DNA from: Phoronis australis
Taxonomy: Eukaryota; Animalia; Phoronida
Direction of reading: 5' to 3'
NCBI GenBank assembly: GCA_002633005.1
Contig: NMRA01000049.1
Span: 716,321-780,320 of the forward strand
DNA length: 64,000 bases
Made by a program: the position numbers and the translations under genes. Below, piece after piece: positions 17,416 to 48,384 of this stretch. The notes below the pieces were generated by a model that was not told where the DNA came from, did not search any database, and saw only the letters and a program-made list of their open reading frames with translations. Position 1 is the first letter of the stretch, and every line of letters begins with the position of its first letter.

Positions 17416-17416
17416 G

Positions 17417-17976: not shown

Positions 17977-20039
17977 CTTAACTTGTCCTCAGTTATGCAA
18001 CAATGTTGATTTCAAGCATCAGTTTTTGAGCGCATGTACGCATATATTTCATTAGGGGCAGAGAATTTGAAAACTATATTGAGATGAAAGAGTTTTTGTT
18101 TCATCTAAGGTTCAAAAATAATGAATCTGGCGATTTTTTCTAGAAATTTTTGCACCATTCAAAGTGAATAACTCTCACTTTAGCATCCCCAAGGGGTACG
18201 ACATGTAGATTCGCCACGATCTGTTTAAAAGGTGATTTACGATTTTCGGGTTCCACGCCTATTAAAATCTGCCAACCTCTTCTCTCATGTTTTCTAACTG
18301 TCAATAATAAGCTACGCTTAACAATAATGTATATCTAATTGTCAAATTTCTACCAGCATGGGGTGAGAATACAACTAACGACGTAATTCGCTAATTGGCT
18401 GGGATGAGGGTGCACCGCGCATTTGCTCGATTTGTGTGCATTCGTTTATTCCTGGGTTGGTTCTCGTTGTGGAATACAGGTCTCAGGCTGAAAGGTTTGT
18501 TTAGTACAAAATAACTAGGTTTAGAACTGTTCGAAAACTTCTTCCGAACACGTTACATCTGTATGTTTGAGATATTTTGCGGTGTAATGACCCCAAACAA
18601 TGTCAAACGTAAAATAATCTGCTCGCGATTCCGCGATTCGGAAGCCGGCGGTGGGTTCTCAGCTGGTAGGCGTTTAGTAAAGCCATCTAGAGGTAGTACA
18701 ATAATTTCGTAACTTTATAATTTTCTTAAAATGTGTCCATATGGTCAAGCACCACCTGACCTCTAATGCAATACCAAAGGTATGTGCCTAGGATAAATAA
18801 TAACAAATATATATATTCTAATACTAGACCAGTGGGAAAATGTAAACTTCCTTACTGTCACTAAAACTTTTCGCAACTCCGGCGTTTTTCAACCGAATTG
18901 CATAAGACTCATATCATTAGAAACCCCTTCATCAGCTCCAGATCATTACCAAAATGCGAAAAATACTGTTTAAAATGGAATCATTTACGTACTAAATGGC
19001 TGATTAAATAGCTAATTAGTGATTTAATAAATTGCAATGCCAATTATTTTAGGGTGCAGTAGTCTTGAAAAGGAACTGAACCAGACCATTATGTAAATGA
19101 CTTGTTAAAACCACGAGCAAAATAGTTTCAATGATTCAAAAGATTTGTACCAGATAGAGAAATGTTTAGAAAATGGGTACCCCTGAGTTGCTGTAATGAA
19201 TTTAGTCATACATCTTTATTTATTAATTGAACCTTTTGTGCTGTTTGATTGAAATCTAATCTTCAGTAAAAGTTCAGGTTGCTGTGACATCTGTAAATAA
19301 GGGCAATGCGGATTGTTGATATGCACCCAGACTGTGCATCGCATATAACGCGGAAACAAAGATGTTTAGTATTTTTTAAACATTAAAGGAAGCAATATTA
19401 GTGAACTTAAAATAACCTGTAGGGGCTGCATAGTAAGTCAGCAATGCTCTCCTAAGTGGGAGCGCACCTAGATCGTTAAAAATTTAAATTGCCTTTAGGG
19501 GATGCAGCGGTTTGAGATAGGGGATAGTTACCGGTTCTGTACCAGTTATCATTGTCGTTCCACGTCATTTCCCGCCAAACTACGATTTCTTGCCTCCCAA
19601 AAGGATGATTACGTTTAGCGACCTCAGACGCCGTTAACAGAATACAAGGCGTAATGTCGAGCAGACGCCCCGGACAAAAACGGTGAGCATTTTTCACTTT
19701 TTGACATCTTGATGTAAATTTTAGCCATCCCAAATGATGTGATCAGACTACAACAAGTACAGCATATGAGTAAACCGATGTCTCACCATCTGGGTAATTG
19801 TTTACAATATGACGACATTGACTTACACATATGATTTTGGTATAGTTTGATTCCATGTATAAGTTATCTTTCCAAAAATACACAGAAATTCTTCTTACCC
19901 CGTCTTTTAATATTTTATCGTGAAATTTCTGCTCGCACTATTTCCTGGTACGCGGTAGTAATACCGCTGCGTTGAATGGAAGGAGTCACCTGGCGGTCAA
20001 AAAATTAACTAATCTACCGACTTAATAGATTGTCGCTTT

Positions 20040-22438: not shown

Positions 22439-24927
22439 ATAAGGTCAAGTTGACCGAGACTCGTCTATCCCCCGCCCGAGTTACGGTGCCAAGGGTTCGA
22501 ATTCGATCTTATAGTGACCCTTCCACGCATCTGTTAGCACGAAACCGCGAAAAAAGTTGTTTTTGAGGTCCATATTGGTGAAACTGGTATCACTTCAGAC
22601 AATTTCGTGGAAACATGGTCAAATGGTCACAATTATAAAAAAATTGGAACAGGTGAAATGCTGCCACTTGTTCCTCCATATTATGTCAGGAAATCTCGCG
22701 CAGGCAAACACCATTCAGAATCGATGATGCTGTTTCATTGATTAACAACAGGTGTCGCTGTAATCTTTACTTGAGCTAACATGGCGGTGTCAACCGGCAA
22801 ACAGTGGAAACCGAAATTCGACGAGAAAAATACAGAAGAAACGCAGTAGGGGATAAATTCATATACTTTTGGAAAGATAACGTTGCGAGGAATCGAACGA
22901 TACCAAAATCATGTGGGTAGATCAATGTCGTCATATTGTGAACAATTATCTACTGCGGATCAAATCGCCAGGAAACGGGTGGCGAAGAGCGAGGCCGACG
23001 TAGTGTTTCGCGCACTAAGTGAGGTCATGCTCTGCGTGAGAGAAAGTTCACAGAAAATTTATTCAGCCATATGATGCTACCACAGTTGTACTTGAGGAGT
23101 AAATATGACACTGACTTGCAACGCAGTGCAGTGTGCAATGGTGCAACGCTGCTTTTTGTATATGCACCGCGAGTCCTCTGGCTTCGTCACCGTATGCTCA
23201 GCTGCTATTGCTACTGCTAGTACGGCAGCCACTACTAGCACTGAAAGCACCCGTGTAGCAAGTAGATCATGCGGAATCTTTTTCCCGGCCCTAGTTTAAT
23301 TAGTCGTACCTCTGGACTTCCACCCCAGCCTTATTGGGGTTTACACAAACTGGCAGGTGGTTGTATTGGAGAGATGTTCCGTACATACAAGAGGAATAGG
23401 GGTGATGCATCATACAATCAGAAAAGAAAAATTCTGGCTGCTGTGACCATTTCTGCAGATGACAAAAAGAAGTAAGTTTTATTTTGATTTCCTGGGAATA
23501 AAATCATGGGATTGGGAGTTATAAAATTATTCATATCCTTTGTTTTGAATCAATGGTCACATGACTACGTCTAATTCTCATCAATTCATGTTATTGTCAA
23601 AACTGAATTGTTGCAAACTTTCCTCAGTTCACTCTAATTACCCTCATTGCAAAGCAGGTGACTTTCTCAGTGACTGAAAGCAAAACAATGTCCATGATTA
23701 GTTTCCCTCTAGAACAATATGCGAATTACAGGTTTCTTTTGATATCGGGACAAGCGAACATTGACATAATTTAAAGATGCCATGTCTCATTAAAACTGTG
23801 AAGATTTAAATTTTAGCAACCGCCACGTAATGACTTCCTGGGGAACTGTGTGTACAGAAAAAGAAACAATTGGTAAATAATTTAAAATAGTAAAACTAGC
23901 AAAACTAAAACGACGAGCGTCGGTACTAAAATGTATTAAAATATCCCCACATTTTGAGCGATGCGCTCTTAGTCAAGGGTGTGCTACAGACTGCTGAGTG
24001 CATGTAGATTGATCTAAAATGAAATGGCACATAAGACCACATGGTGACATACAATAGACATTTGCTGTTTTATAGAAAACACTGTAACTGAAAACTTAAA
24101 AACAAATGTGAACACACAAAAACAACTGTAATTTCAAATATAACGCAACTGTTATTTGATAGTGAAAAAACAAATATAAAAAACTGTACCTTGTTTCATT
24201 TAGGGAACAATGAAATTTGCATAAAAATAGTCTCGACTTTGCGATATTGTAATTGTAACTGGTTCTCGGATGGTTTCCGGTACATTGATATAGGAAGACC
24301 CGTTGTAGTTTGTAAATTAGTACTTCATTTGCAATTTAATGAGACGATGTATCTTTAAAGTATGTAGTTCGACTTGTAAATGTACCAACACGCAACTTGA
24401 CATGCAACTTTTCTTTGAATTGCATATTTAAGTACTAAGTACTAAAATAGACAAAGAATATGTACACAACAAACACCCATTTAAGTGGATGACTTGACTT
24501 TCAGTGAAGCATGCTAGCACATGAATATGCCTTCAGGATGAAAGGGCCTTAAAGAAAGTTTTTTATTGAAAAAGTACACTGTTCCCTATGAATGAACTTT
24601 CAGTTTTACTTGTACAGTACTAGATCAGTGCTGTTCTTGTGATTTCCTAATTTCTGTTTTTCTATATAGGTTTGGCATCCCTCTTCCAGTACAGCAGAAG
24701 TGCAGAAATAGCGGTAACTTACTGTACCTACACCATTCCTTCTTGCCATTTCTGAGAAAGCTGGATAGTTCCATACGAGAAGAGTTCGTTGGTAACCACA
24801 GACACAAAATCGTAAAGGTGAACAAGAGACGAAATCATGCCGCAATTCAACCTTTCCCTGCCTCCATATCTTAGATTACCTGAGACTAGGTGGTAAAACA
24901 GTGAACATATACATTCACTATAATATC

Positions 24928-25200
24928 CACGGGTGAGAAACAACATGACCACCGGTCCTCTAAATCGGACTGACTCACCCAAAACAGGACCTCCGGGGAT
25001 CCGCCGGACAATATACGGTTTCAATCCCCGGCGGTCATGTTCAGTCCCCGGCGGTCCTGTTTTCTGGTGGGGCGGTCATGTTTTTATGTGCGTCAGTCCC
25101 ATTTTCTGGTGCGACGGTCTCATTTGATCCCCGGAGGTCCTGTTTTGGGTGAGGCGGTCCGATTAACGAGGACCGGCGGTCATGTTGTTTCTCACCCGTG
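24928..25200. mobile_element. 273-bp foldback MITE with CAC...GTG ends and 5-bp TSD (Transib-like)
   Basis: CACGGGTGAGAAACAACATGACC... and ...GGTCATGTTGTTTCTCACCCGTG form ~70-bp inverted arms. ATATC flanks both sides (24923-24927, 25201-25205). Confidence 0.82.
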
Positions 25201-28200
25201 ATATCAAGCTTATCACAGTAGTGCTTGATATAGGAATGAGATGTCAAGTTTTGGGGTTTCCAGGTAGTGCTAGATTTCGGAATGACCTGTTATGTTCACT
25301 TGTCCTGCTTTTGGGTCCAAATCGTGTTGCCGATACATCATCACTAAGCATCCTAATTGTGTGCCTCTAGATACCTCTCACTCATTTTAAATTTTGCCAT
25401 GTTTCCCTTTGCAGATTATACAATCCAAGGTAAAAGATGATATAGAGTTGGTGACAATGGGTGTGACAATTACAAAGTCAAGACCACCAAAGTCATCCTA
25501 CATTTTTGATGTACATGTGAATAGTGACTTTGTAAGAACAATTCTTGTCGTAAATATACCAATGCACATATTGGTGGTTTCCTCAGAGGAGAGGCAGGAA
25601 GAAGCTTTGAAGGCAGAGATGTGCGAACAAAAGGCGACGTGGGTTTGCGTGATAGACTTTATCGTCAGGTAGCAGTTAATAAAACGTGAATTAAATTGAT
25701 GTATGTCATATCATTTGCTCAAATTGTGCAAATAATTTTCTGTGATCTGTTTCAAAATCTGTGTAGCAATTGTCCTTGTAGTGTTGAACAGCATAATAGA
25801 ATACACATGTAATTTAATGGTTATCGTTGTTACATTTTCAAGATATGTGAACATCACAACCATTATGATATCACATTAACTTAGCTAATATTAAACAACA
25901 AAATCAGTCAACTTAATGCAAAGTACACCAATAATATTTGCACACAGAGAGGTGCTATTCGAACCAAAAAATACACTAATGAAATACTTGTAGCAGTCCT
26001 ATCATATTCAGGTCACTGGTAGGCATGTTACTACTGTGACTATGTCATGTGAATCAGTACATGTTTGTGTCCCTCAGTCCTTTCTTGCTTTTTCCTGAGT
26101 GGAATCTCATGGGTTGCAACAGTACCCCTGACCTCTCTCTGCAGTTTCTTTGTCAGTAGGGCATGTGAAAATTTTACTGACGTCAGCTTTCTACTTGATA
26201 TGTACTTGTATTCACTAAAAAAATTTCAACAGCACTACCCTTCAACTGCAGTGGAAAAGTGTAGTACCCTGGATGTCTGGAGAGGTAGTCCAGGCACAAT
26301 GCTTTGAAAGAGAATACACAACTTTGTACAAGATTGTAGGTCTGAAAGGAAACAACGAAAACACTCTTATATTTGTTGTTGCATTATGCAACTACCAGCA
26401 GCGTCCTCAAATTGGACTTAAAACAGGCTGAAATGTGCATTAAATCCCGATGCTTTACATATGTTGCAGTCATTGCAGCTATCACGTGGAATTCTAAAAA
26501 GGCAAGTTTGCCTGTACGTAATTTAAGGTAAAACAGTAGCTTGTACATTAGCAATTTTCACTTGTACAATGGTTTTTGTTTTCTGAGGTCACGTATATCT
26601 GAATTTGTTAGTAATTCCTACTCTCTGTGTTTGCTAGGCCAAATTACTGAGAAACAATGTGCATATGAAGTTGGTTGAAAATTGTCTTATGTTTTTAAGA
26701 ACAAATTTTGTAGCGAAAATAATCCGCCATATCCAGTACGTATCGTGACATAATGCTATTTGAGCCCGCGAGGTATGTCATTACTGCAAAGGTCACCTTT
26801 TGCAAAATTATTTGGTTTTCACATTCACAAGTTGCCTGAATACAGCTGCACTTGGTTGATATTCAAAAATCGTTGTTTAGTTCATGTAATACATTAGGAC
26901 AGTTAGGAGCATTTAAGAAAATTTCGCGACCAGGATCAGAGGACATTTGTCAGAAGAAATGGGCACTAGTGTGCCTCCATGAACCCTTTTCAATAAGCCA
27001 CCCATTACTTATTATGTTAACTTTTGAAGTATACCCTGACTGGAATAAAGTGACTTGTTTCAAAACCTGACTCAAAGGGGTGCTTGAATTCAATACCAGA
27101 TAGGCTTACAGAATGAATACCCAAAATAATACCCACTGAAGAAACAGTCATTTATTTCTTATTCAAAGCAAAGGTATCTAAACAGTAATCGAAGTTTGAA
27201 AATTAAACCTATATCAATACAAAATTCATAGAAAATCATATCCTGTCAATTCAGGCCCAAAATCGACAAAAACCTTTCCCAATTCGATGCCAAAATTGGT
27301 GAAATCACCCTTTTAATCGGCACGTCACCCACCCACACCGTGGAATGTCATTCAGATACTGAATGGCCCTTGTCCTAAAAATAAAATTTTGTAGGAAGCC
27401 GTTGGTTTTCGCCCTCTATACACCTCCAACATGACACTGGCAACTACTCATGAGAGGAAGTCGAGATTCCAAATTCATCAAAAACACAAAACATTCGTGT
27501 ACAGCAAAGAAGCTATATTGTAAGAAATGACGATGCGTCACTGAACTTAACTGGCTGACTTGGGAAAATTCGACTCATCATCAGACCACCATATTGCAAT
27601 GAAGTACACTAAACGATAACAGTGATATTTATGAATGTCGGGCAGCTCTAAATGCTTTATTGAATTAAAAACTAGACTAGTGAAATTTAAAAAATTATAA
27701 GCCGCAGATCGAAAAATAAGTTCAAGTTATTGCTCGTAAATTTGGAAAGAGTGTCTGCACTTCCTTGATGCTTGTAGTTCCCAGTAGTATTGTGCAATGA
27801 ATTGTGGTTCTTCTAAACCGAATCGTTTGCTTGTCAGGACACTGTGACGCACCCACGTTAAAAATAAGGTGTAGTCATGCAGCAGGCACGCGTAGTATCG
27901 CCAGTGATATTGACGAGAAATGAGCTTAAACTTCAGGCGTTGAAGTGAATACATTTTTGGGACACACGTTCATTTTCCCCAGCTACCAGGCAGAAGCTGG
28001 ACCAGTGGCCGTGTTTCAACAAGGAATTTTGGTGAGCTTTATAGACCAAGAACTAGCTTCGAGGGCCATACCTTTCAAAAAAAAATCTTCATGGAATGAC
28101 CATGTTAAAATGAACTTTTCCCAAAACTGGGGATCAAAAACAACATTTGGAGTCAGAACACGGGTATAGATTCGTGCTAAGCCGCACGACTCAGATGAAT

Positions 28201-30379
28201 CGTAGCGGAGCTGAGCAGCGACTAGTGAGCGCTCTTGCACATACATGGCAGATCAGACTGGCTTCCCGGCGACGCCACATTGGCCACCGTGGCTTAGGGC
28301 TAACGCTAATTTCTGCTTCTAAATTTGAATTTAAGCACAATGATAAAGTCCACGCATACACACATGCAAGCGTATACACATACAATATGTATGTTCATAT
28401 TAAACCACACTCAATGTTCTTTGAACGTTGACTTGGGCGAGTTCTTAGTTTTCTTGGAATGAGATCTACATGTAGGCCTACCCAATCTGCCTCCCGTTCA
28501 GTAGCGCTAGGACCTCGCTAAAAAGCAAGACTTCCCGAGATTACGTGAGACATTGCCGTGTATTTTAAGTCAGGACACGTGATTTTGACTAGGTTTCAGC
28601 TAGGTCCTAGCGTTGGTCCTATGGTTACTGAACGCACGCCAGGTAGAACTGCGTATCAAGTCATACAATATAGGCACCTGACGGTTCAAATTGGAAGCTC
28701 GCGTCGTATGACGTCGTATGACGTAGGCGATGCGAGCCTCTTTTGCATATGTTTGTAACATCTGTTGGTTCAAAAAGAGGCTCATACCCGAGTACATGCC
28801 CCCGGGAAGAGGCATCTTTTGGAAGGATAAAACAGGTCATGTTCAAAGCATCCCAGTGCCATTAATATGCAGTCTTTAGGGACCAAAGTGGAGTCATTTT
28901 ATAGCTAAAGAGGTAATCGTTCAAACACAATGCTTGAATTCCAGATACCTTGAACATTTATTTTTGAAATTACTTTTGAAATCACGTTAAAATGCACTAA
29001 AACAGTTGTCTCTTCCTGGTTATCTGTACCTGGACAATCAGCTGATCATGGCAAGACATGGGGGAGGGGTGAGTGAACGCAAACAAAGTGAGGGATATCG
29101 CCAGTGAGTAATTGGATATGAACTGCAATAGGACAATAGAGTATGATACAATTTAAACTTCGCAGTTTCTAACACTAGAAGGTCACTTTCTGAGGAAACC
29201 TACATTATCCTGTTATCATGCAGCTGTACCATTACGTTACCGTCATGCGTCCACGTTTTAGTGGTGGTTTTAGATTGTACGAGGCGACGACAGCGGGCGT
29301 GGAGACGGGAACGTTATTTCGTGAGATTTTCATTGATGTAGATCGGAGATGGTAAGTTCAGTTTGCGTAGTTGACTTCTGTTGTGAAGGAAAGCAGCTCT
29401 GGTATTGTATGACACAAATTTACAGATGATAGGGCAATCTTTTCGCGAATCTCTAGCTCCACGTTTACATAGTTTGGGCCCGAGTCTGTGAGATCTAGGC
29501 GTACTGATTTGTTGGCGGTTAATTTCAAGACACAGTTTACAAGATATAAATTCCCAAAAAGCGAGAGGTGTATGCTGTTGCTGTAGACACTCTCCGTCCC
29601 GATATTAATTTGGTCCAAAGACTTCCTGAAGCCGCTTTGAGGTGGTAATGTAGTAACGTTGGTAAGCAGAGACTAATGTAACTGCTTATTGAACAAATAC
29701 TGCCAGAAACTGATAACATTATAAGCAGGCAGAGTACAATTATAATAAAAAATATATAAAGGATGATTACTGACAGATATCAAAATTACAAGAGAATTTC
29801 TATGATATAACAACATACATGTAATACGATTTAGTTACAAAGACGCAAACACACGTAGAAACAAAACACGTAGAGGCTATTAAGTAATTAAAATTTGAGC
29901 TTGCTATTATGAATGAAAATGGATACTACACCTATTAGAAAAATATTCTAATCCAATTTAAGTAGATCCGAACCATAAAGCAAAAATGATGCACGTTGAT
30001 TACTAGGTAAGCAGTGGTAAATGGAGGTGACGTCAATATTTGAATAAAGGGAGTGGCAGAGATGGGCGCGATCTATTTGATTGACAGGACATGTAAACAA
30101 AATGATTAACACTGTTCAAGGAGCCACATTTGCCAACATTTGACACTTCTAGAAAATCATATTGAAAATTTTGGGAATTAAGAATAGACCGCCTAGAACT
30201 GATTGTTTGTTTCTGAGAATAGTTGTTATACAAGTAGTTGGTGTGGGTGTATGAAGCTCAGACAAATATCTTTTGACAGCAAGTTTAAGCGATTGAAAAC
30301 TTCATGCGATTTCTTTCCGCACTAAATGAGAGGAGATTTACGAAATGGGTTAGACAAAGCATGAGGCAGTACAAACTCT

Positions 30380-31110
30380 GGTTCAGTTCTTCAATTTTTC
30401 GCGAAATTGTGTCCGTCTGAAGTTGTTAAATAGAAGTGAATTGAAATCACTATTAATATTGTGAAGAACCCTGTAAGTATAAATATTGGTGTTTTTTGTT
30501 CTAATGTATGAGAGTAACACCCAGTTAAGTAAGTCGATTAAAGAAGAAGACATCAAACAATTCAATACCGACTTAACTGTCAATACCATCAACGTACCAG
30601 ACATTGTTGTGGGCATTAAAATCACCTAGGATTAAAGTGGAGACATCAGAAAAAAGTCTACTGAAAGAAGAGTTGTACTTCCTTCATTCAACGGGGATTT
30701 GAGAAGGAGACCTGTAAAACTCCATTACATAATTTCTTATTATTAACGAATGTGCCTTCCGAACATTTTGGGAGTAGTGTATGAATGTGTTTGTGAACGA
30801 TCTCACGTGGCATGAACATATACAATGAGACCCTTACTCAGGTTGGTGTGACAGGCACTCTTGAATACAAATATCATACAAGAACTTCAGATTGTCGGGT
30901 GTCAAATTGACGGACTCACATATAGCTGCATTTCTATAATTGCCTTTGATTACACTTTGTTTTAACTTCAAAATTTAAGGACTGGAAAAGTTGTTTGCTT
31001 TGATTCTGTTGATATTTGAGAACAAGATGTTGAATGTGCCGGGCTTGGTTGGGCCTGGATATGACTCAATGTCACCACAGCATAAGGGATCTGAAATAGA
31101 AGACCTACCA
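30380..31110 (-). mobile_element. Second 2A-APE LINE relic, related to 17100-17415
   Basis: CCGDIESYPGP..FNILFSNINRIKANNFS, then degenerate APE motifs FYRSPSQ and LGDFNAH. Confidence 0.65.
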
Positions 31111-32409
31111 GTGGCCTTAAAATAGTTAATAATAAATGTCCTGCCACAATATGGGCGGTGCAGCACTGAAAAAAGTGGGGCCTGTATCCTCCTAGCATCC
31201 CATGGTGCACCGCCCATACACCATGGGAGGCGCAGCACGGAAAAGTGGGGGGCTATAGCCCCCACCCAGCCCCCCATGAATGTGCCAACTCTTCCAAACC
31301 CCTGGGATACACAATAACGCGCGGCGATGCAGAACGCCATATCATCATCCGTAATTATCACAGAGCACATAATAAATACGATCGGCGCGATAACCCATCA
31401 AAACATGAGCACTTTAGGGGACAACAAAGCATTGGTAAGGAATATTTTGAGACCGAGTTTTAGTAGTAGAAGGTTCGAATTTCCTTTTTATCCAGTTAGA
31501 CATGCAAAATGCAAGTTTAAAGAGATTCCGTGGAGAGCGCTAACAGTCCACTGACCATGGAGCTACTAGAAAAATAACGTAGTAGATCTTGTAACGTTTC
31601 CAACGCTACAATTTGAATTTCCAATGGAAATCTGGCGTGTGGCACTCCAAAAATTATAACATATAAGGTTGCCAAGGATCAGGAACATCCTATAAGTACG
31701 GACAATGGAGTTTGAATCGGTAGAAATTCAAACTCCATTTGCGTATTCTGGCTAATTGTACATTCTGTGACTATTCCAAAACGTTGATACAACACGTTCT
31801 ACAAGAAAATCGCAAGCACCTGTTTTTGATAAAAGAACCTGAACTACTACACGAGTCCACGGTTTCGAGTCGGACTTACGTAGGGCATGCGCACTAAAGG
31901 TAAAGAACTCGGGGGAAACAATATTGCATCGCGGACTCTACGGGATCTCGACAATGAAATGCACATTTCTCTGAAAATAGGGAGTGAATGGCGAAAACAG
32001 AGTTTCATAATAATTTATGCAATCAAATGGGAATACTGGGAGATTGTTTGGACACAACCTTTACCCTCTGAGCTCGGCTACGTTGCGGAGTGGATGCTGG
32101 GGTTATCCATAATAGTAATATTTAATTGTGATCTAAATACTATTAACACTTCAATTGAAATAATTTCAAGACGATTTTATGCTGTATCGAGGGCTCGCTG
32201 ATAATACCAATATGACAGTGATTGGTCTTGGGGGAAAAGCAACCTGTCTTGCAAATGATCAGGTTTTTCCGAGAGCACACACGGGCGCGAGCGCGCCCAC
32301 ACACACATACATTTATATATATATATATATATATATATGCATATGCATGTACATGCGCATATATATTTATGCTTCCCAATACGTATGAATGAATTTCGGT
32401 TATCGACCG

Positions 32410-32500
32410 GCGGTCCCGGTAGCTCAGCGGACTTGAGGGTCTGTACCTTTAGCAGAAGATCCTGGGATGGAGCCCCAGTCAGAACAGAGATCTTTTCAGC
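32410..32500 (+). mobile_element. Possible tRNA-derived SINE head
   Basis: A-box-like TAGCTCAGCGG and a degenerate B-box-like GGATGGAGCCC at tRNA-like spacing. No full cloverleaf. Confidence 0.3.
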
Positions 32501-33022
32501 CTTAACTATAGGTCACGTGATGAGACTAACATACAGGGTGTATGATTCTGACTTAAAACATATCTTGGACATTTCAATTTGTCACTGAGGTAACTGAAAC
32601 ATAATGAGGACGTCATTGGTGACGAACACAAGTGCCTGGCGTATTCCGTGAAAACCTCGATGTAATACATGTACGTCCATCGACACGACTGCGTAATGCA
32701 ATCTTGAGGTCTAAAAGTTTAGGTCATTCGAAAACGAAAGCATTTGCGAATAGACGCAATATCGTCGTTTTAACGAAAATTAGCCAAATGGTGTAATAAC
32801 GTCCCATTAATTGACAAAATGAGTAAGCAGATAGGCTCAAAACATTAAAATAGCTGTGAAAAGATTGAAAATAATACTATTCTTCTGCCATTATACTGCC
32901 AATTATTTTTGGCATAAAATGCGCCAAAATCTGACCAAGTTTGACAAAGTACTGTCGAAGACTGTCCACTTTATCTTGGAAACTACTGTACTCTTTAAAA
33001 TACACTGTATGAAGCGTTGCAT

Positions 33023-36000
33023 ATGGGAACTATCTCTTTAAAAGACGTAATTATTCCAGGTATGAACAGCGATGAAGGTAAGGAGTCTGATCACGGGAGG
33101 GCTTACGATGGTGAAGTCTTCGAAATCAGCCGAGAAGATTGTTCCATGATAGCCGACATTGTGTCACCTTTTGGCTACAGCACAGCAGAAGCATTGGTAT
33201 GTATTGCATATGCAGTACTCATCCGCTACGAAGGTGCAGACAAACCTCCTTCTATTTCATTGGCATTTGGCTCTCCTGGACGAGATCAGAATGATACTGA
33301 CGAATCTTTTAGTTGCGACAAAAAGGCAATCGCCGATGAGGAATATTCAACAGCTCTTTTTCCATGTGATGTCAATAGCTCTATTTCAGACATGCTTTTG
33401 TCCCAGCGTCTCACGTTTGACAAATGGCCTGAAGCGCACTCGAAGTTCAACCGCAGCAGCCCCAGCGCATACATGGCGTTTGACTTTCCACGCGACTTCA
33501 ACCGAAGCAGTCAATCCAACCAGTATGAAGTTAAGCTCAATTTGACCCACCAGTTCAACGGAGGCTACTCCTGCTCAGTACGACAAAGCACAAAGGGCTG
33601 CGGTGACCATGTGACGAGATTTCGAGATCATTTTCTGACACTGCTTTCGCAAGTCCACTGTTCTGAAAATCTTAACCTACTCAGCACACCAATTCAAACG
33701 CAGGAAGAGAAACAATTGATGGCTAAGTATAACGCAACTGACAAGTTCTACGAAAATAGTACATCACTTATTCACGAGCTTTTCGAAGAAAAAGCTAGGC
33801 AACATCCTGACGAAGTCGCTATTTGTTGTGCTGAACAAAGTCTGACTTACAAACAACTAGATGAACAATCGACCAGGCTTAGTCATAAAATACTATGCGC
33901 CATGGGTAATGCGTTTTCAAGTCGTTTAGTTGGTATAAGCGTTGATGCATCAATAGATATGGTGATAGGTTTGTACGCCATCATGAAAGCTGGTTTTGCC
34001 TATGTACCGCTTGATCCAAGCTACCCTGAAGAGCGACTAAGTTACATGATTGAAAACTCCAAAGTAAGTCTTGTAATTGCCAAACAATCAATTGTTGGCC
34101 TACTCAGGAATTGTTGCCAAACGGTGCTTTGCCTTGAGGATGTTTTGGTAGAATCTGCCGAAGAAAGAGTATTTGAAAAACAAATTGTCAATCCCGATGA
34201 CTTGGCTTACGTAATATACACGTCTGGATCCACTGGGAAGCCAAAGGGTGTGATGGTGAGTCACCGAAACGCAGTTAACACTATTCTGGATATCAACGAC
34301 AGGTACTCTGTGGCAGAAAAAGACAAAATACTTTTGGTTGCGTCACTCAGCTTTGATCTATCTGTATATGATATATTTGGTATCCTAGCTGCAGGGGGCA
34401 CACTAGTCATTCCTGTTCCAGAAGTTCGCGGAGTCCCAGACCCCAATTGCTGGTTTGAAACCATGAAGAAGCACAGTGTAACAATCTGGGACTCCGCACC
34501 GGCTGTTCTAAGTATCTTAATGGAATTTATTCTTTCTGAAAATGTTTCACTGCCATTTTCCTTGCGGCTATGCATGCTAAGCGGCGACAGAATACCGCTG
34601 AACCTCCCCACCCAGTTGCAAGATATGGTTCCGGGAATTCAAGTCATGAGCCAGGGAGGTGCAACCGAGGGATCAATATGGTCTATTTATTATCCGATCC
34701 AAAGCGTCGACGATGACTGGACGACCATACCGTATGGCATGCCACTTTCCAATCAAAAATATTACGTTCTAGACGAATTCCTAAATCCAGTACCTACTTT
34801 AGTTATAGGAGAATTGTTCATAGGTGGAACAGGTGTAGCCATGGGATATATAAACAATCCTAAAATTACAGAATACCGATTCTTGCCCAACCCTTTTGTT
34901 GAAGGAGAGCGAATCTATAAAACTGGAGATCTAGGCAGATTACATCCTACAGGTTACATCGAATTCTGTGGGAGAATAGACAACCAAGTTAAAGTACGTG
35001 GTTTTCGTGTTGAGCTGTCTGAAATTGAATCAGCTTTGATTAACCAAGAAGGTGTTGCTGACGCGTTAGTCATGAAGGTCCAGGAAAGGCTTGTCGCTTA
35101 CATCATTTGTGACCAAAATGTTCGTCTTGTCGAAGCCGATCTGCGACAGAAAATTGCTGTTTGTCTTCCGTCATACATGGTCCCTGCATTTTTTGTATTC
35201 ATGCATTCCTTTCCTGTAACTGCTAATGGGAAAGTGGACCGACAGGCACTGTCTGAGGTAAACTTTAGTCAAAAGAAGGACGAGGACACGGACCCTTCTC
35301 TTCCTGAAAAATCCACATTAGCAATCAAACCGTCGTTTACAGATAGGGAATACCTTTTAGCTCAAGTATGGAACGAAACGTTTAATGTTGATTTAGACGA
35401 ACTTTCGCCTTCATCATCTTTCTTTGAGATTGGAGGGGATTCCATCTCTGCTATGACTGTTGTCTCTGCAGTGCGGAAGAAGAATTTTCGGATATCTGTG
35501 CAGCAGGTTTTGGGTCACCCTAGGCTTTGTCAACTTGCTATGGTAGCAAAACCACTTGGGAGTGTTCAAAAGAGCAGGTTCCAGGCGAATGAACCTTTAA
35601 CACCTTATGTTCAACTTACTCCAGCCCAAATTTGGTTTTTTGAACAAGATTTTATAAACCCTCATTTCTGGAATCAGTCGTTTCTTCTTCAACCAAAGAA
35701 AGAAATTAGAGCCTGTCAACTGAAGGTAGCCTTAAATCGTCTGATTTGTCAGCACGAAATGTTAAGATGTACGTACTCTCAAACATCAGATGGTGGTTGG
35801 GTACAGACAATTAACGATATAAAGACCCCGTTCTTTAAAAACAAAACACTAGAGAACTTGGAAATGCTTAACGACGAGTTGGAAAGCTTAAAATCTTCTC
35901 TAAACATACACAAAGGTCCCCTATTGGCAGTTGGGCTGTTTAATGTTGGTGATGTGCAGAAACTTTATGTAACCGTTCACCATCTGGTTGTTGACCTTGT

Positions 36001-39000
36001 TTCATGGCGTATTATCCTCGAAGATCTTGAAAGAATGTATGAAGGACAAGAGACTGAAATGCCGAGTATGTCATTTCAAAAATGGTCATCACAATTAAGG
36101 CAAATAGCCGTGCCCTTAATGCGCGATGAGTGGCCGAAAGAAACCGAAGCCTCACCACTGCCTGTAGATGTGGGAAGTAATCTAATCCCTACGGCTAGCT
36201 CTAGAAAGACAATTGTTACAGTGCTTGATCGCAACGTAACCGCTGGTTTGGTGTCATCTGCAAATACTTCTTTTAAAACCAACACCAATGACTTTTTGAT
36301 CGCATCTCTAATTCTAGCATACAACGAGTCATTTGGGTTGGAGAGTCTTCAAATTGACGTTGAGGCACATGGTCGAGAGCCATGGGATGACTCCGATGAC
36401 ATTTCAAGGACTGTTGGCTGGTTCATGACAATGTTTCCACTGACGCTAGAAATCTGCCAGGGGCCATCAAACGAGAAAACTATGGAAAATACGCTAAAAT
36501 TAGTAAAAGAAAAGATTAGAAATATTCCAAAACATGGAATGCCATTTTGGCTCTTAAAGTTTTTGAAGAATTCAGATGAAACGGAAATTGAAAAGTCAGA
36601 CGTACTTTTTAATTATTATGGCCGACTCGATCAAATTCAAACCAAAAGTACTCTATGGGAATTAGATGATGATTATCCGTGTGGTGAGGATGAGTTTAGC
36701 TCAGATGAAAAGCTGACACACAAGGTTGTCGTTGAATGTAGCCTCAAAGATGAAAAACTCTACATGAAGATGTTTTACTGCACTGATATCCACGAACAAA
36801 AGACCATTGAATCGTGGATGGAGAAATGGAAAGAAAACATAATCAAACTGGTATCGTACTGCGGAAGAGATGACGTCTTTGGCTATACACCATCAGACTT
36901 CCCGTTGCTGAAGCTTTCACAGTTCCATTTAGATGAGCTGCTGTCCACCCGACTTGCACAATTAAACCTAGCGACCGAACAATTATCCGACATGTATCCA
37001 TGTACACCGACGCAAGAGGGTTTTCTGTTTAGACTTTTGCAAGATACCTCCTCTTACGTAGTGCAGAGGTCATGTACCCTCAACGGCTCAGTCGATCAGG
37101 GCAAATTACAAACCTGCGTTTATAAAATAATTTTAAGACATGACATCTTACGAACTCGGTTTATTGCTGACAGATTAAATGGGTGCATGCAGATCGTATG
37201 GAAAACCTTCGAACCCCAATGGACGATTGAAGACTGGTCTGACCTTAAAAGAAGCGAATGTGCTCAAAGAGAGATTGAATATCTACGGCATGATCGACAC
37301 TCGGGGTTCAATTTCACAGAGCCAATGCTAAGGTTTGCACTTTTCAGAACATGCAAAGAGACATACCGTTTCATTATAACTTCTCATCACAGCATAGTGG
37401 ACGGACAAACGTGTTCACTGGTTCTTCAGGAAATATTTATGGCGTACAGTGATGCAGTGCTTCCGGACACACCGGTATTTAAAGAATATGTCAGAGAACT
37501 GATGGACTATAAGTCGTGTAGTTACAAAGCAGAGGGATTTTGGAGAGAAGAACTGAACCAACTACCCGATCGTGGAAACCTTCGTTTCTTGGCCCCAGAG
37601 GTTCCCCAAAAGGGTTATGATGTTATTCACCACTCAGCATTGAACGGAAAGGTTGGTGAAATTCAAAAGTATGCCGAGCGACATGGGATCTCAGTTGCTG
37701 CCATGATCTGTGCATCTTGGGCTTACGTAATCAACAAATATTCGTGTGACCCAAATGACGTCATTTTCGGTTTTGTTGTGTCTGGTCGTGGAACCTCGCA
37801 TATTGAAAACGTTAACAGGTTAGTTGGAGTAACAACAAATACATTGCCCTTCAGAGTAAAGATTCATAACCATCACGTGGCGGAGTGGCTAGACTACGTA
37901 CAGAAAAAGATGGTGGCTATTATTGAACATGAAAAATCATCACTGACAGACATTCAGCAGTGGTGCGCATTGACGCCGGATGACAAACTCTTTGAAACAC
38001 TTGTCTCATTTAATGCCATGAACAGGGAAACGGAGATTTCTCTAAAATCTCATGACATTGAGGTCTGCAATGTCTATGACCATGAATTTACAGAGTACCC
38101 CCTGACTTTAGATATTCTTCAAACAGCTAATGCTATCGAAATTAAAGCTATTTATAACAAAAGTATTATCGACGCGGCAGCAGTTGTCCAAATCCTTAAT
38201 CAGCTAGAAAGAGCCATGTGGTGGATAGCAACTGCGTCAAAGGAAACACGAATAAGCGAGTTTGACATTGTGAGCCCTGAGGAGCATCTGGTGTTAGAAA
38301 ATTTGAATCCAATAGATAACTATAATGCCCAACTCGGGCATTTCAAAGGTGTGCAACACCTATTTGAAAGAATGGTTGAGCTTAATCCAAAAGAGCAGAA
38401 GGCATTAATAATGGACGATGAGTCGCTAACCTATAGAGAACTCAACTCAGCAGCTAATGCTATAGCTATTCATCTCCGATCTCTTGGCCTTTCACGTGGT
38501 GAGAAGGTTGGACTTCTCATTGATCGAGGGATACCCATGGTTGTCGGAATGCTGAGTATCTGGAAGGCTGGAGGCGCCTTTGTTCCTATAGATGCTGCAC
38601 AGCCAATGGATCGTGTGTTGTTTATATTAGAGGACTGTGGATGTCGATTTGTCTTTAACTCCAGTTCCATTGACGCAAAATCGCTACCGCAAAAGCACAC
38701 TTACATTTGTTTAGATAATCACCTTCTTGCTGCGTACAAAAACGAAAATGTGTGTAACCTTGAGTGTGTACATGACGCACGTGACCTTGCATACATGATT
38801 TACACCTCGGGTACAACTGGGCGACCAAAAGGTGCTATGGTTGAACATCGTGGGCTAATCAATTTCTTAATGTATAAGCCTGGAGGTGTTCTCGAAGTGA
38901 CTCCTCAAACAAATGTGATGCAGTACTTTGCTGTCGGATTCGACGGTGCTGTCTTGGAGGTGTGGACAACACTTTGCCATGGTGGATGTCTTTTCATTCC

Positions 39001-42000: not shown

Positions 42001-45000
42001 GGGATGCCAATGTTTAATTCCTCGGCTATGTGAAGCCTATTCCATTACACATGGCACAAGAATGACGCATTTCTTTAACATAATGTTTGACGGGGCGTAT
42101 CAGGAAGTATTCATGGCTTTGACAAGTGGGGCAACCCTGGTGCAACGAGAAGAAAACTTCTTAAATACTTTAAAAAATGTGGATGTTTCTTTGATGTCCC
42201 CTTCAGTTCTTGCGTCTTTGGACCCTGAAGACTTTCCCAATCTGAAAAAGGTAATTGTAGGTGCCGAAATACTTCCACAGTCTACAGTGGCTAGATGGAA
42301 AGACCACGTGGAGCTTTATAACGAATACGGTCCATCGGAAGTAACTATTATGTGTACCCTTGGGTTAACAAATTTCAACGAAAAGGTGACCATTGGCAAG
42401 CCAATCACTAATTGTACAGTGAATATTTTAGATGGCAATCTAAAGCGTGTTCCCATTGGAGTCAAAGGGACGGTGTACATTGGGGGCAACGGAATTGCAA
42501 GGGGTTATCTCAAACGACCTGACCTAACTAACAAAAAATTCATCAACAACCCTTTCGGCAAAGGAAAACTTTACAATTCTGACGACATAGGTTATTGGAC
42601 TGCAGATGGCCAGATCGTCCTTGCAGGTCGAAGAGATAGACAAATCAAATTACGAGGCTTTCGAATAGAGCTTGATGAGGTTGATCATGCAATGCGAAGT
42701 GAGAAGGGAATTTCAAATTCTGCTTCTGTCGTAAAAAATGACATGCTTGTGGGGTACGTGACGCCTGACATAGGCAATTTGGGAGTACGTGAACTAAAGA
42801 AGAGTCTTCAAGACAAGCTTCCCCACTACATGGTACCGTCAGCGATTGTTGCTCTCTCGAAATTCCCCATGTCAGCGTCGGAGAAAATCGACTACAAACG
42901 TTTGCCTGAACCTTCTTTCATCGAGTCTGAAATACTCACGGCGAAAGAAGGAATTCTCCTTAAAATTTGGAGTGACGTTTTGCAAATTGAGTTATCGAGG
43001 ATTAAGACTAGTGACTCATTCTTTTACTTAGGCGGCGATTCCATTTCGGCAATGAGGGTATTCTCCCTTGGAAGAAAGAGTGGGTTACGCTTTACAGTTC
43101 AACAAGTCTTTCAGTCCAGAAGTCTTTCTCACCTTGCACATGTTGCAAAATATGCTGAGAAAATGAAAGCTGGTAAAAAAGGTGAACAGGTGGAGGTTTC
43201 AGGACATTTGCCATTGACCCCCATTCAAGAATGGTTTTTCGACTTAAACCTTCGCAATCGCAACTGTTTTAATCAATCACTGCTTCTAAAGTCATTGTTA
43301 AAAGTGGACCCAACACACCTTCAGAATGCCATCAATGCACTTGTCAGACATCACGATATTCTGCGCGCTTTCTTCTCGTTTAAACCAGATGGACGTGCAG
43401 CGCAAGAAATCATGTCTGTAAACGATGCACCAATACCGAAATTGATTCTCAAGAGAATTCCTGAAGACAATCTGGAAACTGAGATGACCAGACTTCAAAA
43501 TTCGTTAGATATAACGTCCGGTCCACTCCTCGCTGTTGGTCTGTTTGATATCGAGGGTAATCGACAGTACATATATATCACAATTCATCACTTAGTCGTG
43601 GATCTTGTTTCTTGGCAAATTATCTTAGAAGATCTCGAAACATTATACCGAGGAGATCTTCTCCAGCAGAAAACGTCTTCATTCAAGGAATGGGCAGAGC
43701 TTCTCAAGTCCGACTATTTTTTTTCCTTTGTTCGCGACGACTGGCCAAGTTTAGAACCAAGCAATCCTTTAAAATTGGATTATGTTCCACAGAACATAGA
43801 TAACATCAAAACCGACAGTGTTGAATTCGAACAAACAGAGTTAGACAAAGAAACAACCAGCAAATTACGCAGTCTCAGAGGGACACGTGGACACGACGAT
43901 ACTTCAATTAATGATATTCTTCTGACAGCACTCATGATAGCGTACAATGAATGGACTGGAGAATCAGTGATGTCCATTGAGCAGGAATGGCATGGGAGAG
44001 AGTCTTGGACAGACAGGCTTGATGTGTCTCGTACTGTCGGCTGGTTCACTGCCATGTATCCCGTAACGTTGTCATTGCACAATCACACAAACGGAGTACT
44101 GGATCACCTTGAAGAAACAAAGCGACGAATTCGAAATATTCCTGATCACGGTAGGCTATATGGAGTATTGAAATATCTAAAGAAAGACAATGATCCAAGG
44201 TTTCACCAAAAAGTTGACATTGTATTTAACTACCATGGAAGTTCAACAATGTATTCTAAAGAGAATAGTCTGTGGGAGGTATGCGATATTGGTGCTTACA
44301 CGTTCAAAAATCGTTGTGATTATGAAGAAGTTAGTCACAAGCTCGGAGTTGAATGTTATATTTCTCAAAATTGCCTTCATGCAAATTTTCTGTACAGCAA
44401 AGATCTTCATCGAGCAGAAACCGTTCGGCTAGTTGCGCAATCGTGGAAGAAAGCACTTCAAAATATCGTCAACGCACTTCAGTTGAACTCAAATATTACT
44501 GAAGTACCTTCGGAAAACCGTGGGATCAAATTTAAGACAGTCCAGGATGATTTGAAGAAAGCAAGAATCAGTTTGGATGACGTGGAAGACATTTATGCCT
44601 GTACACCCCTACAAGAGGGGTTGATATTTTCTTTACTCCGAGACAAATCATCTTATTTGGTACAATTATGTTTGACGATAAAAGGAAATCTCGATGTAGA
44701 AAGATTCAAATTGGCATGGAATGATGTGACAAAACGTCATCCCGCTCTTCGAACGAGTTTCGTCATTGATAGTAGAACACATACCTTGATGCAGGTAGTT
44801 AGACGTTATGCCGATCCACCTTGGAAAATCGGGTCGTGGACTGACTCTGCAGAAGCGGAGTCTCGTTTTGTAAACGAAGACAGAGCAAAAGGATTCAACG
44901 CAAATGATTATCTGCTTAGATTTACTTTAATGAAAACATGCCCTTCAAGCTATAAATTTATTTGGACTGTCCACCATTCAGTTGTCGACGGCTGGTCTTC

Positions 45001-46697
45001 CCCACTCGTACTGAGAGACGTCTTTGCGGCTTATCATTCAAACAATCTTTTACCCGCTCCTTCCTTTCGGTTGTTTGTTGAATATTGCCAATCGCGTGAC
45101 ATGTCTGCTGCACAGAGTTTCTGGTCCAAGTATTTGTCCAATCTCGAACCAATGCGAATCATAACTTTGTCCACAATGAAAGAGATTTCTGAATGTGACA
45201 ATCGACACGTGACACGCACATTTTCCACAAGAATGGATGAACTGAAGCAATTCGCCATGAAGAACAATTTAGCAATAACTTCGGTAATGTATGGTGCCTG
45301 GGCGCTAGTTCTGGATAGGTATTGCAGTAGTTATAGGAAGGACGTTGTTGTTGCAGTTGCTATAGCTTCACGAAGTGCCGAAATAGAAGGTATCGAAGAC
45401 ATGGTTGGACTGCTGCTTAACACATTACCACTTCGCATAACTTTCACATCAAATGAAGAAATGTCGCTAGTGGATTGGCTTAAGACCATACAGGATAGTC
45501 AAGCTGCAATAATGGCATATGATTATAGCAGTTTAGCTGACATACGGAAATGGAGCGGTCTTCCAAGAGATCAGTGTTTGCTTGATACCCTGGTCTCATA
45601 CGAGAATTACCCAGCTCTTGATAATGTGAGCAACCAAGAAATAGAATTCTGTGACATTCATGGATATGAAGAGCTTGATTTGCCACTCGGAATCGTTTTC
45701 AGTGACGATGACGAATATTTGACGACTAAAATTATGTACGACGGTAATCACATCAGCAATGAGTTAGCGCTCCAGATATCGGAACATTTGAACAATGCTT
45801 TGAATGAGATACTCTCTTCTGATAACTCACGATCAGTTTCTGATGTCGACATCAGTAAACCATTCGACATTGAACAGACAAGTGTGGCAAGTCGGTTAAT
45901 TGATAATGTGGCATGTTCACTTTATGTTAAGGATCAGTATGGCCGATCCTGTCCTAAAGACGTCATCGGGAAGTTGTTTATACAACACAATGCGACTGAC
46001 GATGAGGTTTACACTGGTGTTCTGGCAACATCACGAATCAATGGCGGCATAGTTGTTCTGGTAGGCAGCGAAGTCGACTCACTACCGGAAGAGCTGGCGG
46101 GGATTGAAGGATTACCAAGCTCTGTTATCTCCAAAAATAATGACGGTGTATTTGTCTTCGCTTCTCAAAAAGATCCCCTCCATTCTTCGCTATTAGAAGA
46201 GATTAAAAGGAAGCTTGAAAAAGTCAATTTACCAATGTTTGTTCTACCAGTTGACTTCGCCGTTGTTACTGGTGATATTCTTAAAGATATGACAGAAGTG
46301 CCCCCAGAAGTCTCACGAGCGGATTCCAAACAGATATGGCAAGGATGTGACTTTTCGGAAACGTTGACAACCAAGGAAATAATGCTTCGGGATATGTGGG
46401 CAAAGGTTCTGAAAATGAACTCAAGCGAGGTCAAACTCGACCATTCCTTCTTCGACCTTGGAGGCACGTCAATCACGGCTATAAGTCTGGTTTCACTTGG
46501 TGAGAAAAGAGGTCTACAGTTTCAATTATCGGACGTAATGCAGCTGCAAACACTTGCAGAAATTGCCTCAGTTGCCGAGTTAAAGGTTGACGAGGGTGAC
46601 CTGTTGGTTTGTTTAAACACTGGCAATGTCGGCGAAGCTCCAGTCGTATACATTCACGCCAGTGACGGTGGTGTATCGTCGTTTTCGTACATCAGTG
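33023..46697 (+). CDS. Multimodular NRPS, exon 1 (C remnant-A1-T1-E1-C-A2-T2-C-A3-T3-E2-C-vestigial A-T4-start of TE)
   Basis: Uninterrupted 4573-codon ORF. A3 motifs YTSGSTGKPKG (~34216), YTSGTTGRPKG (~38801), FTSGTTGKPKG (~41951). Carrier motifs GGDSI (~35432), GGHSL (~39890), GGDSI (~43031), GGTSI (~46460). E motifs HHLVVDLVSW, ExHGRE and SRTVGWF, each twice. C motifs HHSIVDG, HHSVTDG, HHSVVDG. The start is uncertain: first ATG 33023, second ATG 33062 just after a possible acceptor ttattccAG. The exon ends at donor AGTG|GTAAGT. Confidence 0.96.
33760..35250 (+). other. NRPS adenylation domain A1 (Cys-type family)
   Basis: SFDLSVYDIFG, TIWDSAP, LSGDRIP, GGATEGSIWS, YKTGDLGR, NGKVDR. These match the signature of Cys-activating domains from thiazoline-forming NRPSs. 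Confidence 0.85.
35330..36910 (+). other. NRPS T1 plus epimerization domain E1
   Basis: FFEIGGDSI (GGDS type precedes E domains), LTPAQIWF, HHLVVDLVSW, EAHGRE, SRTVGWF, FNYYG, YTPSDFP. Confidence 0.88.
36985..40020 (+). other. NRPS module 2: C (DCL-like), A2, T2
   Basis: MYPCTPTQEG, HHSIVDG, FGFVVSGR; A2 with NGYGPTE and YKTGDLARW; T2 FFELGGHSL. Confidence 0.88.
40100..44490 (+). other. NRPS module 3: C (LCL-like), A3, T3, E2
   Basis: HHSVTDGGS, LDLPLDRARP, VGYFVNTLPLR, QDVPFQ; A3 with NEYGPSE and QIKLRGFRIEL; T3 GGDSI; E2 LTPIQEWF, HHLVVDLVSW, EWHGRE, SRTVGWF. Confidence 0.88.
44580..46590 (+). other. NRPS module 4: C (DCL-like), vestigial A fragment, T4
   Basis: IYACTPLQEG and intact HHSVVDGWS. 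Then only eroded late A motifs (LYVKDQYGRSCPKDVIGKLFI, YTGVLATSRINGG, LPMFVLP) with no A1-A5 core. T4 FFDLGGTSI. Confidence 0.8.
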
Positions 46698-47253
46698 GTA
46701 AGTTCACGTTTGGAAAAATTATATGTGTGGGTTTGTAAAGCCATTGCTGTCGTATTAACTTAGCAGAACTTTGACACAACAAAGTGAGGACAAAATAGCA
46801 CAATTAGTTCTGGTTTCTGCCCAAATCATTATGAAACCCGCGCCTCATCGCCCGTATCACTTTTAGTGGAGTTGTGTTTTTTCATAAACTACATAAATGG
46901 TACAGGATTGGAAACGTGAGGACATTCACATCTTTTATCACCTTTATTGATTAATAGCTAGTTAGCACAGTGAGCCCCCGTCCGGTCGGACGGAACAAAA
47001 GCAACGGCTGCACCGGACCTCTGAAATCAAAATAATATCTCGTCGCCACTCATATTACAGTAGGTGACTTTTTTGGATTATTCGGAAATAAAAATACCGC
47101 ATCACGGCATTGATTATCAAAAAACGGATTTGTTACAGTCGGAGAATTACTATGATTATTATCAATAAGCTTGTTCTTGTTATTATTGTTACTAATATTA
47201 TTCCTTTTTATGTTGTTCTTCTTCTTATTATTATCATCGCTGTTCATTCCTAG
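46698..47253 (+). other. Spliceosomal GT-AG intron (556 bp, phase 1) within the NRPS TE domain
   Basis: GTAAGT donor, pyrimidine-rich tract plus TAG acceptor, and an in-frame stop if unspliced. Splicing restores both frame and a continuous TE fold sequence. Confidence 0.9.
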
Positions 47254-47900
47254 GTCATCTTAAGAAGCACCCTGTGTATGCCTTCCGGTTTCTGGTTGGT
47301 AGCACACCGTTCGAGTCAATTCCTCAACTTGCCTCCCTGTATGTGGAGCGAATGCAACAGTTGGACTTCTTTGACACAGACACAGTCTATACACTGGTTG
47401 GATACTCATCGGGAGCAGCTATCGCCTTTGAAATGGCACTGCTGCTTCAACAGATCAACCGAAGACCGCAAAAGCTTGTTCTTCTAGACGGATGTCCAGA
47501 TTTAAACAGAAACACGTATATGAGAATTATGAAGTGTACGGAAGAACAAATGGCTGGTCATGAGAAATGGCTTCGAGATACGTGGAAACAAAAAGGCCTC
47601 GACGATGATGATGCAAAGGTTGGACTATCGCTCTTCCGAGAAACTGTGAGCGTGTACGCCGCCTACTTCCCTTCGACGATTTATCATGGAGATGTTACAT
47701 TTGCACGTGCCACGGACTTACTAACAGATGGGCCATTAGCGGAAACGCTTGTTGAGATACAAGAGCAAGGGCGCGACTATGGTACTCAACAACTGTGTTC
47801 TAAAACAGTGCGAGTTGTTGACGTTGACGGCGACCATTACACAATGATGAGAGATGAAAAACAGATGATAGCGAAGGCTATTGCCGGAGCATTAGAGTAA
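47254..47900 (+). CDS. NRPS terminal exon: remainder of the type I thioesterase domain
   Basis: Acceptor ttcattccTAG|G at 47251-47253. A phase-1 splice joins HASDGGVSSFSYIS-G-HLKKHPVYAFRF in frame with the 47274 ORF. Contains the nucleophile elbow GYSSG, LVLLDG and the GDHYTM histidine motif; stop TAA ends at 47900. Confidence 0.92.
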
Positions 47901-48325: not shown

Positions 48326-48384
48326 TTATATAGGTAGAGATGAGGAATATATTTAGCTGTATATAAGTTGAGGCATGTATTTGG

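Follow-up and report, generated by a model that had tools for sequence, protein, structure and literature searches.

Nonribosomal peptide synthetase (NRPS) modules that lack a working adenylation (A) domain are already known, and modules that keep a degenerate remnant of one (dA) have been named in fungal NRPSs. In SidD, A1 is reported from intact-protein mass spectrometry to load the carrier (T) domain T2 across C2-dA, that is, across a condensation (C) domain and a dA which is truncated by nearly 290 amino acids (aa) and thought to be structural (PMC8162485). In SidC, A3 is reported to load both T4 and T5 (bioRxiv 10.1101/2022.10.10.511241). Animal genomes hold NRPS genes as well: 199 clusters in 1059 genomes passed a contamination check and are scattered over 13 phyla (PMC10531068), few animal NRPSs have been characterised, and the FmtATR pathway carries introns (PMC11869996). 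Here we describe a spliced NRPS gene in 64,000 nucleotides of contig NMRA01000049.1 (positions 716,321 to 780,320; this whole stretch is called the window) whose fourth and last module keeps its C, T and thioesterase (TE) domains together with a remnant of its A domain. The original prediction, made from the letters alone, took such a degenerate module as unusual; the design is one that already has a name. It did not recognise the introns, the eukaryotic setting or the paralogue described below.

The gene encodes an NRPS of 4760 aa after splicing (start ATG at 33062), and by motifs and local profiles its domain order is (half-C)-A1-T1-E1-C2-A2-T2-C3-A3-T3-E3-C4-dA-T4-TE, E being an epimerization domain. 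It occupies the single long open reading frame (ORF) of the window (33017-46738), which is indeed still open as predicted, the spliced frame running for 4760 codons. Pfam recognises five C/E, three A and four T domains in the ORF and the TE after splicing; the repeated C-A-T modules, intact core motifs and release domain are those of a multimodular NRPS. The last module starts with C4 (44579..45841, forward strand; Pfam E 1.2e-62), in which the predicted HHxxxDG motif is found as HHSVVDG at 44972, and continues through dA (45842..46366, +) to T4 (46367..46567, +; Pfam E 5.2e-14), whose serine stands at 46469 within GGTSI, again as expected. The claim that C, T and TE are all kept holds for C4 and T4, both intact, but the long ORF contains an incomplete TE because a 556-nt intron (46698-47253) splits that domain. 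The first part of the TE (46580..46697, +) ends the long coding exon, so that the frame reaches ~40 residues into the domain; the last exon (47254..47900, +; Pfam Thioesterase E 1.5e-17) carries the rest and the stop, and encodes the TE Ser, Asp and His, with the motifs GYSSG (47400), LLDG (47481) and GDHY (47829).

From the end of C to the start of T, module 4 spans 176 aa, compared with 517 and 513 aa in modules 2 and 3. The remnant measures ~175 aa and not the ~120 aa first estimated; ~313 aa are gone before the A6 Gly and a further 21 aa between A6 and A7. In the usual motif nomenclature, a functional A domain has a P-loop (A3), the A4-A5 pocket, the A7 Asp, the A8 GRxD and the A10 Lys. 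All of these are absent or replaced in module 4, which retains the barrel of the late A core and an eroded A-sub, and 45750-46400 read in all six frames contains no P-loop or A5 motif, which bears out the predicted loss of the ATP-binding loop. Judged by these motifs, the remnant is catalytically dead, and with a module 4 lacking a working A domain the product cannot be read by simple colinearity, as had been anticipated.

The spacer matches no Pfam family at E<=10, pairwise comparison with A1-A3 gives no significant score (E 0.04-0.12), and hhalign returns a weak match (probability 18%, 24 columns). A late-A profile built from 250 of 508 stored segments, with the spacer left out, scores it at 6.3 bits, a value that none of 500 shuffles reaches (maximum 3.4); a second profile, whose alignment included the remnant, gives 8.1 bits, above all 500 shuffles. 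Its ESM Atlas features match AMP-binding_C clusters at 0.92. Moreover, six structural Gly/Tyr/Glu/Leu/Pro positions are invariant in 30 of 30 rows (29 intact late-A segments and the remnant), in the same alignment in which the remnant lacks both the A7 Asp and the A10 Lys as well as the GRxDxQxKxRG stretch. By its profile scores, Atlas features and invariant structural residues, the spacer is derived from an A domain. A 'TGD' at ~46268 was considered as a surviving A7 and rejected, since it lies in the A10 register.

Along the remnant, a linker is followed by the late A-core beta-barrel (~45881-46070) and the eroded A-sub (~46070-46300). In an AlphaFold model, residues 11-50 form a small barrel at pLDDT 86-90, with the A-sub at 56-77 and the tail at 33-37. 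The first 60 residues superpose on many A domains with a root-mean-square deviation (rmsd) of ~2-3 Å over 52-63 residues, and by VIA ~55-60 residues superpose on the C-terminal barrel of A cores (Z 3-5, best 5.1). Two alignments misplaced the remnant and hence were not used for folding, and the fold searches of the first model were dominated by T4. The models are compatible with a remnant that folds. T4 is modelled at pLDDT 93-98 and fits a solved T domain at Z 15.9 and rmsd 1.2 Å over 75 residues.

The deletion in module 4 is real. In dataset X1, DNA that may come from the window's own source sample, one contig (record 1) crosses 45600-46760 at even depth with 0 differences, and in dataset X4 a contig (record 7) covers 45545-46696 with 0 differences and is then spliced to the TE exon. 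The assembly collapse considered in the original prediction is ruled against, because a contiguous DNA contig and a spliced contig from another sample both cross the remnant. Dataset X4 carries another sample code than X1 within the same study; it is labelled 'DNA?' and is taken as RNA solely because its contigs skip both introns, no RNA dataset being listed for the stretch. Datasets X5 and X6 leave 45717-46223 of this copy uncovered, and X7 has no reads on the gene (18-19% of each run read). This copy may lie on one haplotype only or be tissue-specific.

A diverged copy of the gene is also present. At 80% likeness it accounts for five further contigs in X1, one in X8, and 84 and 120 reads in X5 and X6, all but a few on the sense strand; the fragments in these four datasets share 80-90% nucleotide likeness with the gene described here. 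At 45643-45658 and 46564-46603 the extra X1 contigs agree with X5 and X6 in their variant letters, and therefore represent a second gene in the same sample and not a population variant. In hand-translated loose ends, this paralogue has the same 8-residue gap from the A6-like IQ to the residue before the A7-like YTG, where intact domains have 21 more, and it keeps in register the A-sub helix and the LP/PMFVLPV strand and has a WQG linker, the T4 core and an intron donor in the matching position. Among the differences listed (40 of 197 rows and 40 of 58 rows), its T4 shows 12 silent and 10 mostly conservative codon changes, those in the FDLGG core being silent. T4 is the best-conserved part of the last-module stretch, most of the remnant being too diverged for reads to align at 80%. 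As for relatives that share the deletion, the paralogue fragments show the same short spacing, and no close orthologue was found in the searches given below. Over 45600-46760 in X1, the contig of this copy has depth 11 and the paralogue contigs 8-30, contig depth being no copy number; datasets X5-X8 hardly hold this copy.

Upstream, the start ATG opens a degenerate half condensation-like domain (33062..33760, +) whose Atlas features match condensation-domain clusters at 0.96; its 233 aa have no Pfam match, and it forms a second eroded domain of this NRPS. Module 1, A1-T1-E1 (33764..36886, +), is assigned by Pfam, motifs, profiles and a tree; module 2, C2-A2-T2 with a D-donor-type C2 (36989..40000, +), and module 3, C3-A3-T3-E3 with an L-donor-type C3 (40109..44506, +), are assigned by motifs, profiles and the tree. 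A tree of 35 rows, taken from 116 domains and the gene's own five, places E1 and E3, which carry the motif HHLVVDLVSW, among E domains, C2 and C4 among the C domains that follow an E, and C3 among those of L-donor type; its D-donor and L-donor labels follow domain position and a few are wrong. C4 follows an E domain, clusters with post-E C domains and has an intact HHxxxDG, as expected of a D-donor (DCL) domain; it keeps 48 of 67 conserved columns, and C2 departs at 26. On these features C4 is an ordinary post-epimerase D-donor C domain apart from one strand. The A7 motif of A3 is atypical, YNSDD in place of Y[KR]TGD (42569-42586, +), with its P-loop, A8 and A10 Lys intact.

The best single-domain PDB match of A1 is the Cys-activating domain of BmdB (397 bits), and its pocket, read by motif position, is DLYDMSQIWK, which we take to be close to the Cys code under our assumed GrsA numbering. 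The first residue of the peptide is thus predicted to be Cys-like. The pockets of A2 (DGLGFGGIMK) and A3 (DGQLIGEIMK) have no assignable substrate, and further comparisons yielded no informative match.

We tentatively propose, by analogy with the fungal systems, that an upstream A domain of the same protein, most simply A3, loads T4 and that the TE releases a D-L-D-L tetrapeptide. A1, A2 and A3 would load T1-T3, E1 and E3 would turn residues 1 and 3 to the D form, and A3, as the nearest upstream A domain, would load T4 besides T3. The D-donor C4 would then join the T3 tripeptide to the amino acid on T4, and the TE would free a D-X1-L-X2-D-X3-L-X3 tetrapeptide (X1 to X3 here being residues), probably by hydrolysis. 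The dA would likely serve as a folded spacer, its barrel and A-sub keeping T4 on an arm that reaches both C4 and TE. T4 and TE are intact and conserved, and therefore the chain should reach T4; a survey of 1600 reading frames (at least 25 codons) in the 64 kb turned up no further A, T or C domain.

Several points weigh against this proposal. To load T4, A3 would need to span an additional E domain, an arrangement (A-T-E-C-dA-T) for which we found no tested case, and its own A7 is the atypical YNSDD. The model of a folded remnant is partly circular because it was built with an A-domain alignment, and an open frame is needed for translation of T4-TE anyway and is therefore no proof that the remnant folds. 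In Foldseek the remnant had no match at E<=0.001, the rows listed all being adenylate-forming enzymes, three of them presumably so from their names. The strand of C4 that departs from the norm is altered at V4112, A4113 and S4118, where homologues have F, G and G in 29, 29 and 28 of 29 rows; at 45350-45376 (+) it reads VAVAIASRS where homologues have FG....SGRP, which may alter the active-site tunnel and could mean a changed acceptor. Finally, the sister gene appears to be a single paralogue with the whole architecture, as pieced together from short, unlinked fragments.

The strongest competitor, itself unlikely, is that T4 is never aminoacylated: C4 would act as a stereo-gate and transfer domain, moving the tripeptide with its D end off T3 and onto the free T4 thiol, after which the TE would release, cyclise or oligomerise it. 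Such a transfer requires no long reach by A3 and would explain why C4, T4 and TE are retained with A4 dispensable; the changed strand of C4 fits it, as do ten fungal NRPSs among the stored homologues with C-(110-192 aa)-T. Release in GliP reportedly works by thiol transfer. GliP uses an extra terminal T3 and a CT domain for release (PMC11610984), but C4 has the standard HHxxxDG and clusters with the elongating C2, T1-to-T2 transfer is reported as excluded in SidD (PMC8162485), and ACV synthetase is described as releasing directly from E-TE with no relay (PMC10531068).

More unlikely still is loading in trans, in which T4 would receive its amino acid from another protein: a stand-alone A-T enzyme, a shuttle, or a paralogous NRPS elsewhere in the genome. 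Precedents are the SyrE C-T-TE ending with SyrB1/SyrC, albicidin and ramoplanin (PMC8949500) and WS9326A (PMC10510592), and the sample itself contains one paralogue or more, but the window contains no free-standing A, T or shuttle among 94 of its 108 long frames compared with Pfam and six further frames. A partner lacking in 64 kb does not settle the matter, because animal genes are rarely clustered, and this too tells against loading by A3. C domains can accept free amines, and C4 could hand the tripeptide to one, with T4-TE vestigial or editing stalled chains. The changed strand of C4 would fit a different acceptor, but this is improbable and the weakest of the options raised in the original prediction, because the T4 Ser and the TE Ser-Asp-His are kept and T4 is best conserved in the paralogue while the remnant has diverged. 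An assembly artefact or decaying pseudogene, which the reads missing from X5, X6 and X7 and the origin of all four datasets with this exact copy in one study might suggest, is very improbable in view of the contiguous DNA and spliced contigs, the 4760-codon open frame and the sense-strand expression in X5 and X6 of a paralogue sharing the architecture.

T4 is 41% identical to T3 and 26% to T2, scores 58.0 with pre-E carriers, 56.2 with a mixed pre-C set and 37.9 with 18 pre-TE carriers, and has the pre-E carrier of PvdL as its best PDB match; C4 is sister to C2 (0.83) among the post-E domains of the 35-row tree. It is plausible from these comparisons that the module was once a D-donor C-A-T(-E) that lost its A core and E and gained the TE. 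The best solved relatives of the TE are the pig and human fatty acid synthase (FAS) TEs at 44.0 bits. An earlier contrast, 44 bits for FAS against 22 and 15.6 bits for PDB and stored NRPS domains, made a strong case for an FAS origin; that case shrank when bacterial plasmid TE-like matches were scored alike (39.3 and 38.1 bits for the best two of four), the remaining 44 against 39 bits being a small margin taken from scores and not from a tree, and it is kept as a lead. In its fullest form, the hypothesis would be that a small animal family of intron-bearing four-module NRPSs makes D-amino-acid peptides through an undescribed E-C-dA-T-TE unit, with dA conserved purely as a scaffold and a TE of the host FAS lineage grafted on a horizontally acquired line; we consider this combined scenario doubtful.

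The gene is eukaryotic, with two spliced GT..AG introns and with reverse transcriptase (RT) and THAP pieces and microsatellites around it. Intron 1 (14067..33059, +; 18,993 nt) lies in the 5' untranslated region (UTR) and is seen in a single X4 contig, whose loose end before 33059 matches exactly the 3' end of a non-coding upstream exon (14036..14066, +). None of 100 shuffles gives this match, a GTAAGT donor follows at 14067, and the joined transcript has an in-frame TAG two codons 5' of the ATG. Intron 2 (46698..47253, +; 556 nt, GT..AG, phase 1), inside the TE, is skipped in X4 contig 7 and present in the X1 DNA. Around the gene lie a THAP domain piece (6192-6488, -; E 2.2e-11), broken RT and zf-RVT retrotransposon pieces recognised by Pfam (1908-2869, -; 20591-21082, +; 59768-62023, -) and microsatellites, with no flanking host gene identified. 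THAP domains are typical of animals, and from the 19-kb intron, the THAP piece and the repeats the genome is probably that of an animal. The RT piece at 20.6 kb sits within the 5' UTR intron. Just 5' of the coding exon, a short repeated element (32484-32533) collects many X5, X6 and X7 RNA reads with loose ends on both sides, and a tandem array of ~33/98-nt units (48329-48632) lies directly 3' of the gene.

In protein searches, none of the matches listed exceeded 37% identity to the last module. One homologue search gave 450 matches among 1373 scored candidates (the best 120 of 450 at 23-36% identity) and another 121 among 7995 (the best 120 of 121 at 20-37%). A search for longer proteins with the TE exon returned 0 of 1290, the remnant had 0 matches at E<=0.001 among 1.84 billion representatives, and 0 of 25 metagenome contig candidates were confirmed; 31 bacterial loci at 31-51% identity served only as alignment rows. 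Of 631 C-to-T spans in 240 stored proteins and this one, the 11 that measure 100-199 aa belong to this gene and ten fungal NRPSs. The fungal E-C-T spacers (145-192 aa) were tried as the same remnant and mostly failed: of 12 scored against the late-A profile, P0121 alone matched clearly, at 30.0 bits, and P0031 weakly, at 6.9. Nine large fungal NRPSs (P0008, P0011, P0018, P0019, P0020, P0025, P0028, P0031 and P0075) end in E-C-(110-192 aa spacer)-T-C; their spacers are of low complexity, apart from a short helix that is conserved, and for the most part do not resemble an A domain.

Among animal NRPSs, those of springtails and Plectus (ACV synthetases), nematodes (NRPS-1), rotifers and molluscs (FmtATR) are likewise encoded in animal genomes, and none of them is among the matches listed for this gene. 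ACV synthetase has three modules ending in E-TE; here there are an extra E1 and C4-dA-T4, and the Cys-like A domain comes first and not second, so that the gene is not an ACV synthetase. Neither this gene nor any dA module of an animal NRPS turned up as the subject of a paper, and excerpts of the literature on animal NRPSs do not mention an E-C-dA-T-TE ending; the supplementary table of 199 clusters in PMC10531068 may list the gene. In the 35-row tree, too small to name a donor, C2/C4 (support 0.997) and E1/E3 lie closest to bacterial-type NRPSs of Dimargaritales (Dimargaris P0001 and Dispira P0047). Dimargaris P0001 is also the top match of the homologue search with 450 matches; identity stands at only ~31%, and in the modules listed for both proteins the A domains are whole. 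The gene points to a D-residue peptide from a eukaryote, probably an animal. With an epimerase standing between donor A and orphan carrier, its last module is a compact system for testing how modules without an A domain are loaded, and the remnant bears on what portion of an A domain has to be kept as a scaffold, which matters for NRPS engineering.

The closest functional parallel is with SidD and Nps6 (A-T-C-dA-T-CT), which likewise place an N-terminally truncated dA between an active C and a functional T domain (PMC8162485; PMC2823734), with a loss of ~290 aa in SidD against ~340 aa here; the fungal fragment P0121 holds a late-A remnant similar to the one here (30 bits). By its truncated A remnant between C and T, the last module is a dA module, but it falls outside the SidD/Nps6 family, which is bimodular with a CT: here the protein has four modules with two E domains, one of which separates the last intact A-T from C4, it ends in a TE where they have a CT, its remnant is more eroded and its host is likely an animal. 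A profile of the nine fungal spacers scores the remnant at 0.5 bits, and no sequence relationship to SidD/Nps6 is shown. SidC (...A3-T3-C4-T4-C5-T5-CT) resembles this gene in that its last intact A is reported to load T domains one and two modules downstream, and differs in that its A domains are wholly absent and it has neither E nor TE (bioRxiv 10.1101/2022.10.10.511241). The terminal C-T-TE of SyrE (syringomycin) and the A-less modules of WS9326A and albicidin likewise have no working A (PMC8949500; PMC10510592), but modules of the SyrE type are described as depending on A-T and shuttle proteins that stand alone, are encoded in the cluster and load them in trans; no such protein is seen in the window. 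What is new is the combination: the order E-C-dA-T-TE in a spliced eukaryotic NRPS gene that has two epimerases and an expressed paralogue, and for whose last module the relatives listed stay at or below 37% identity.

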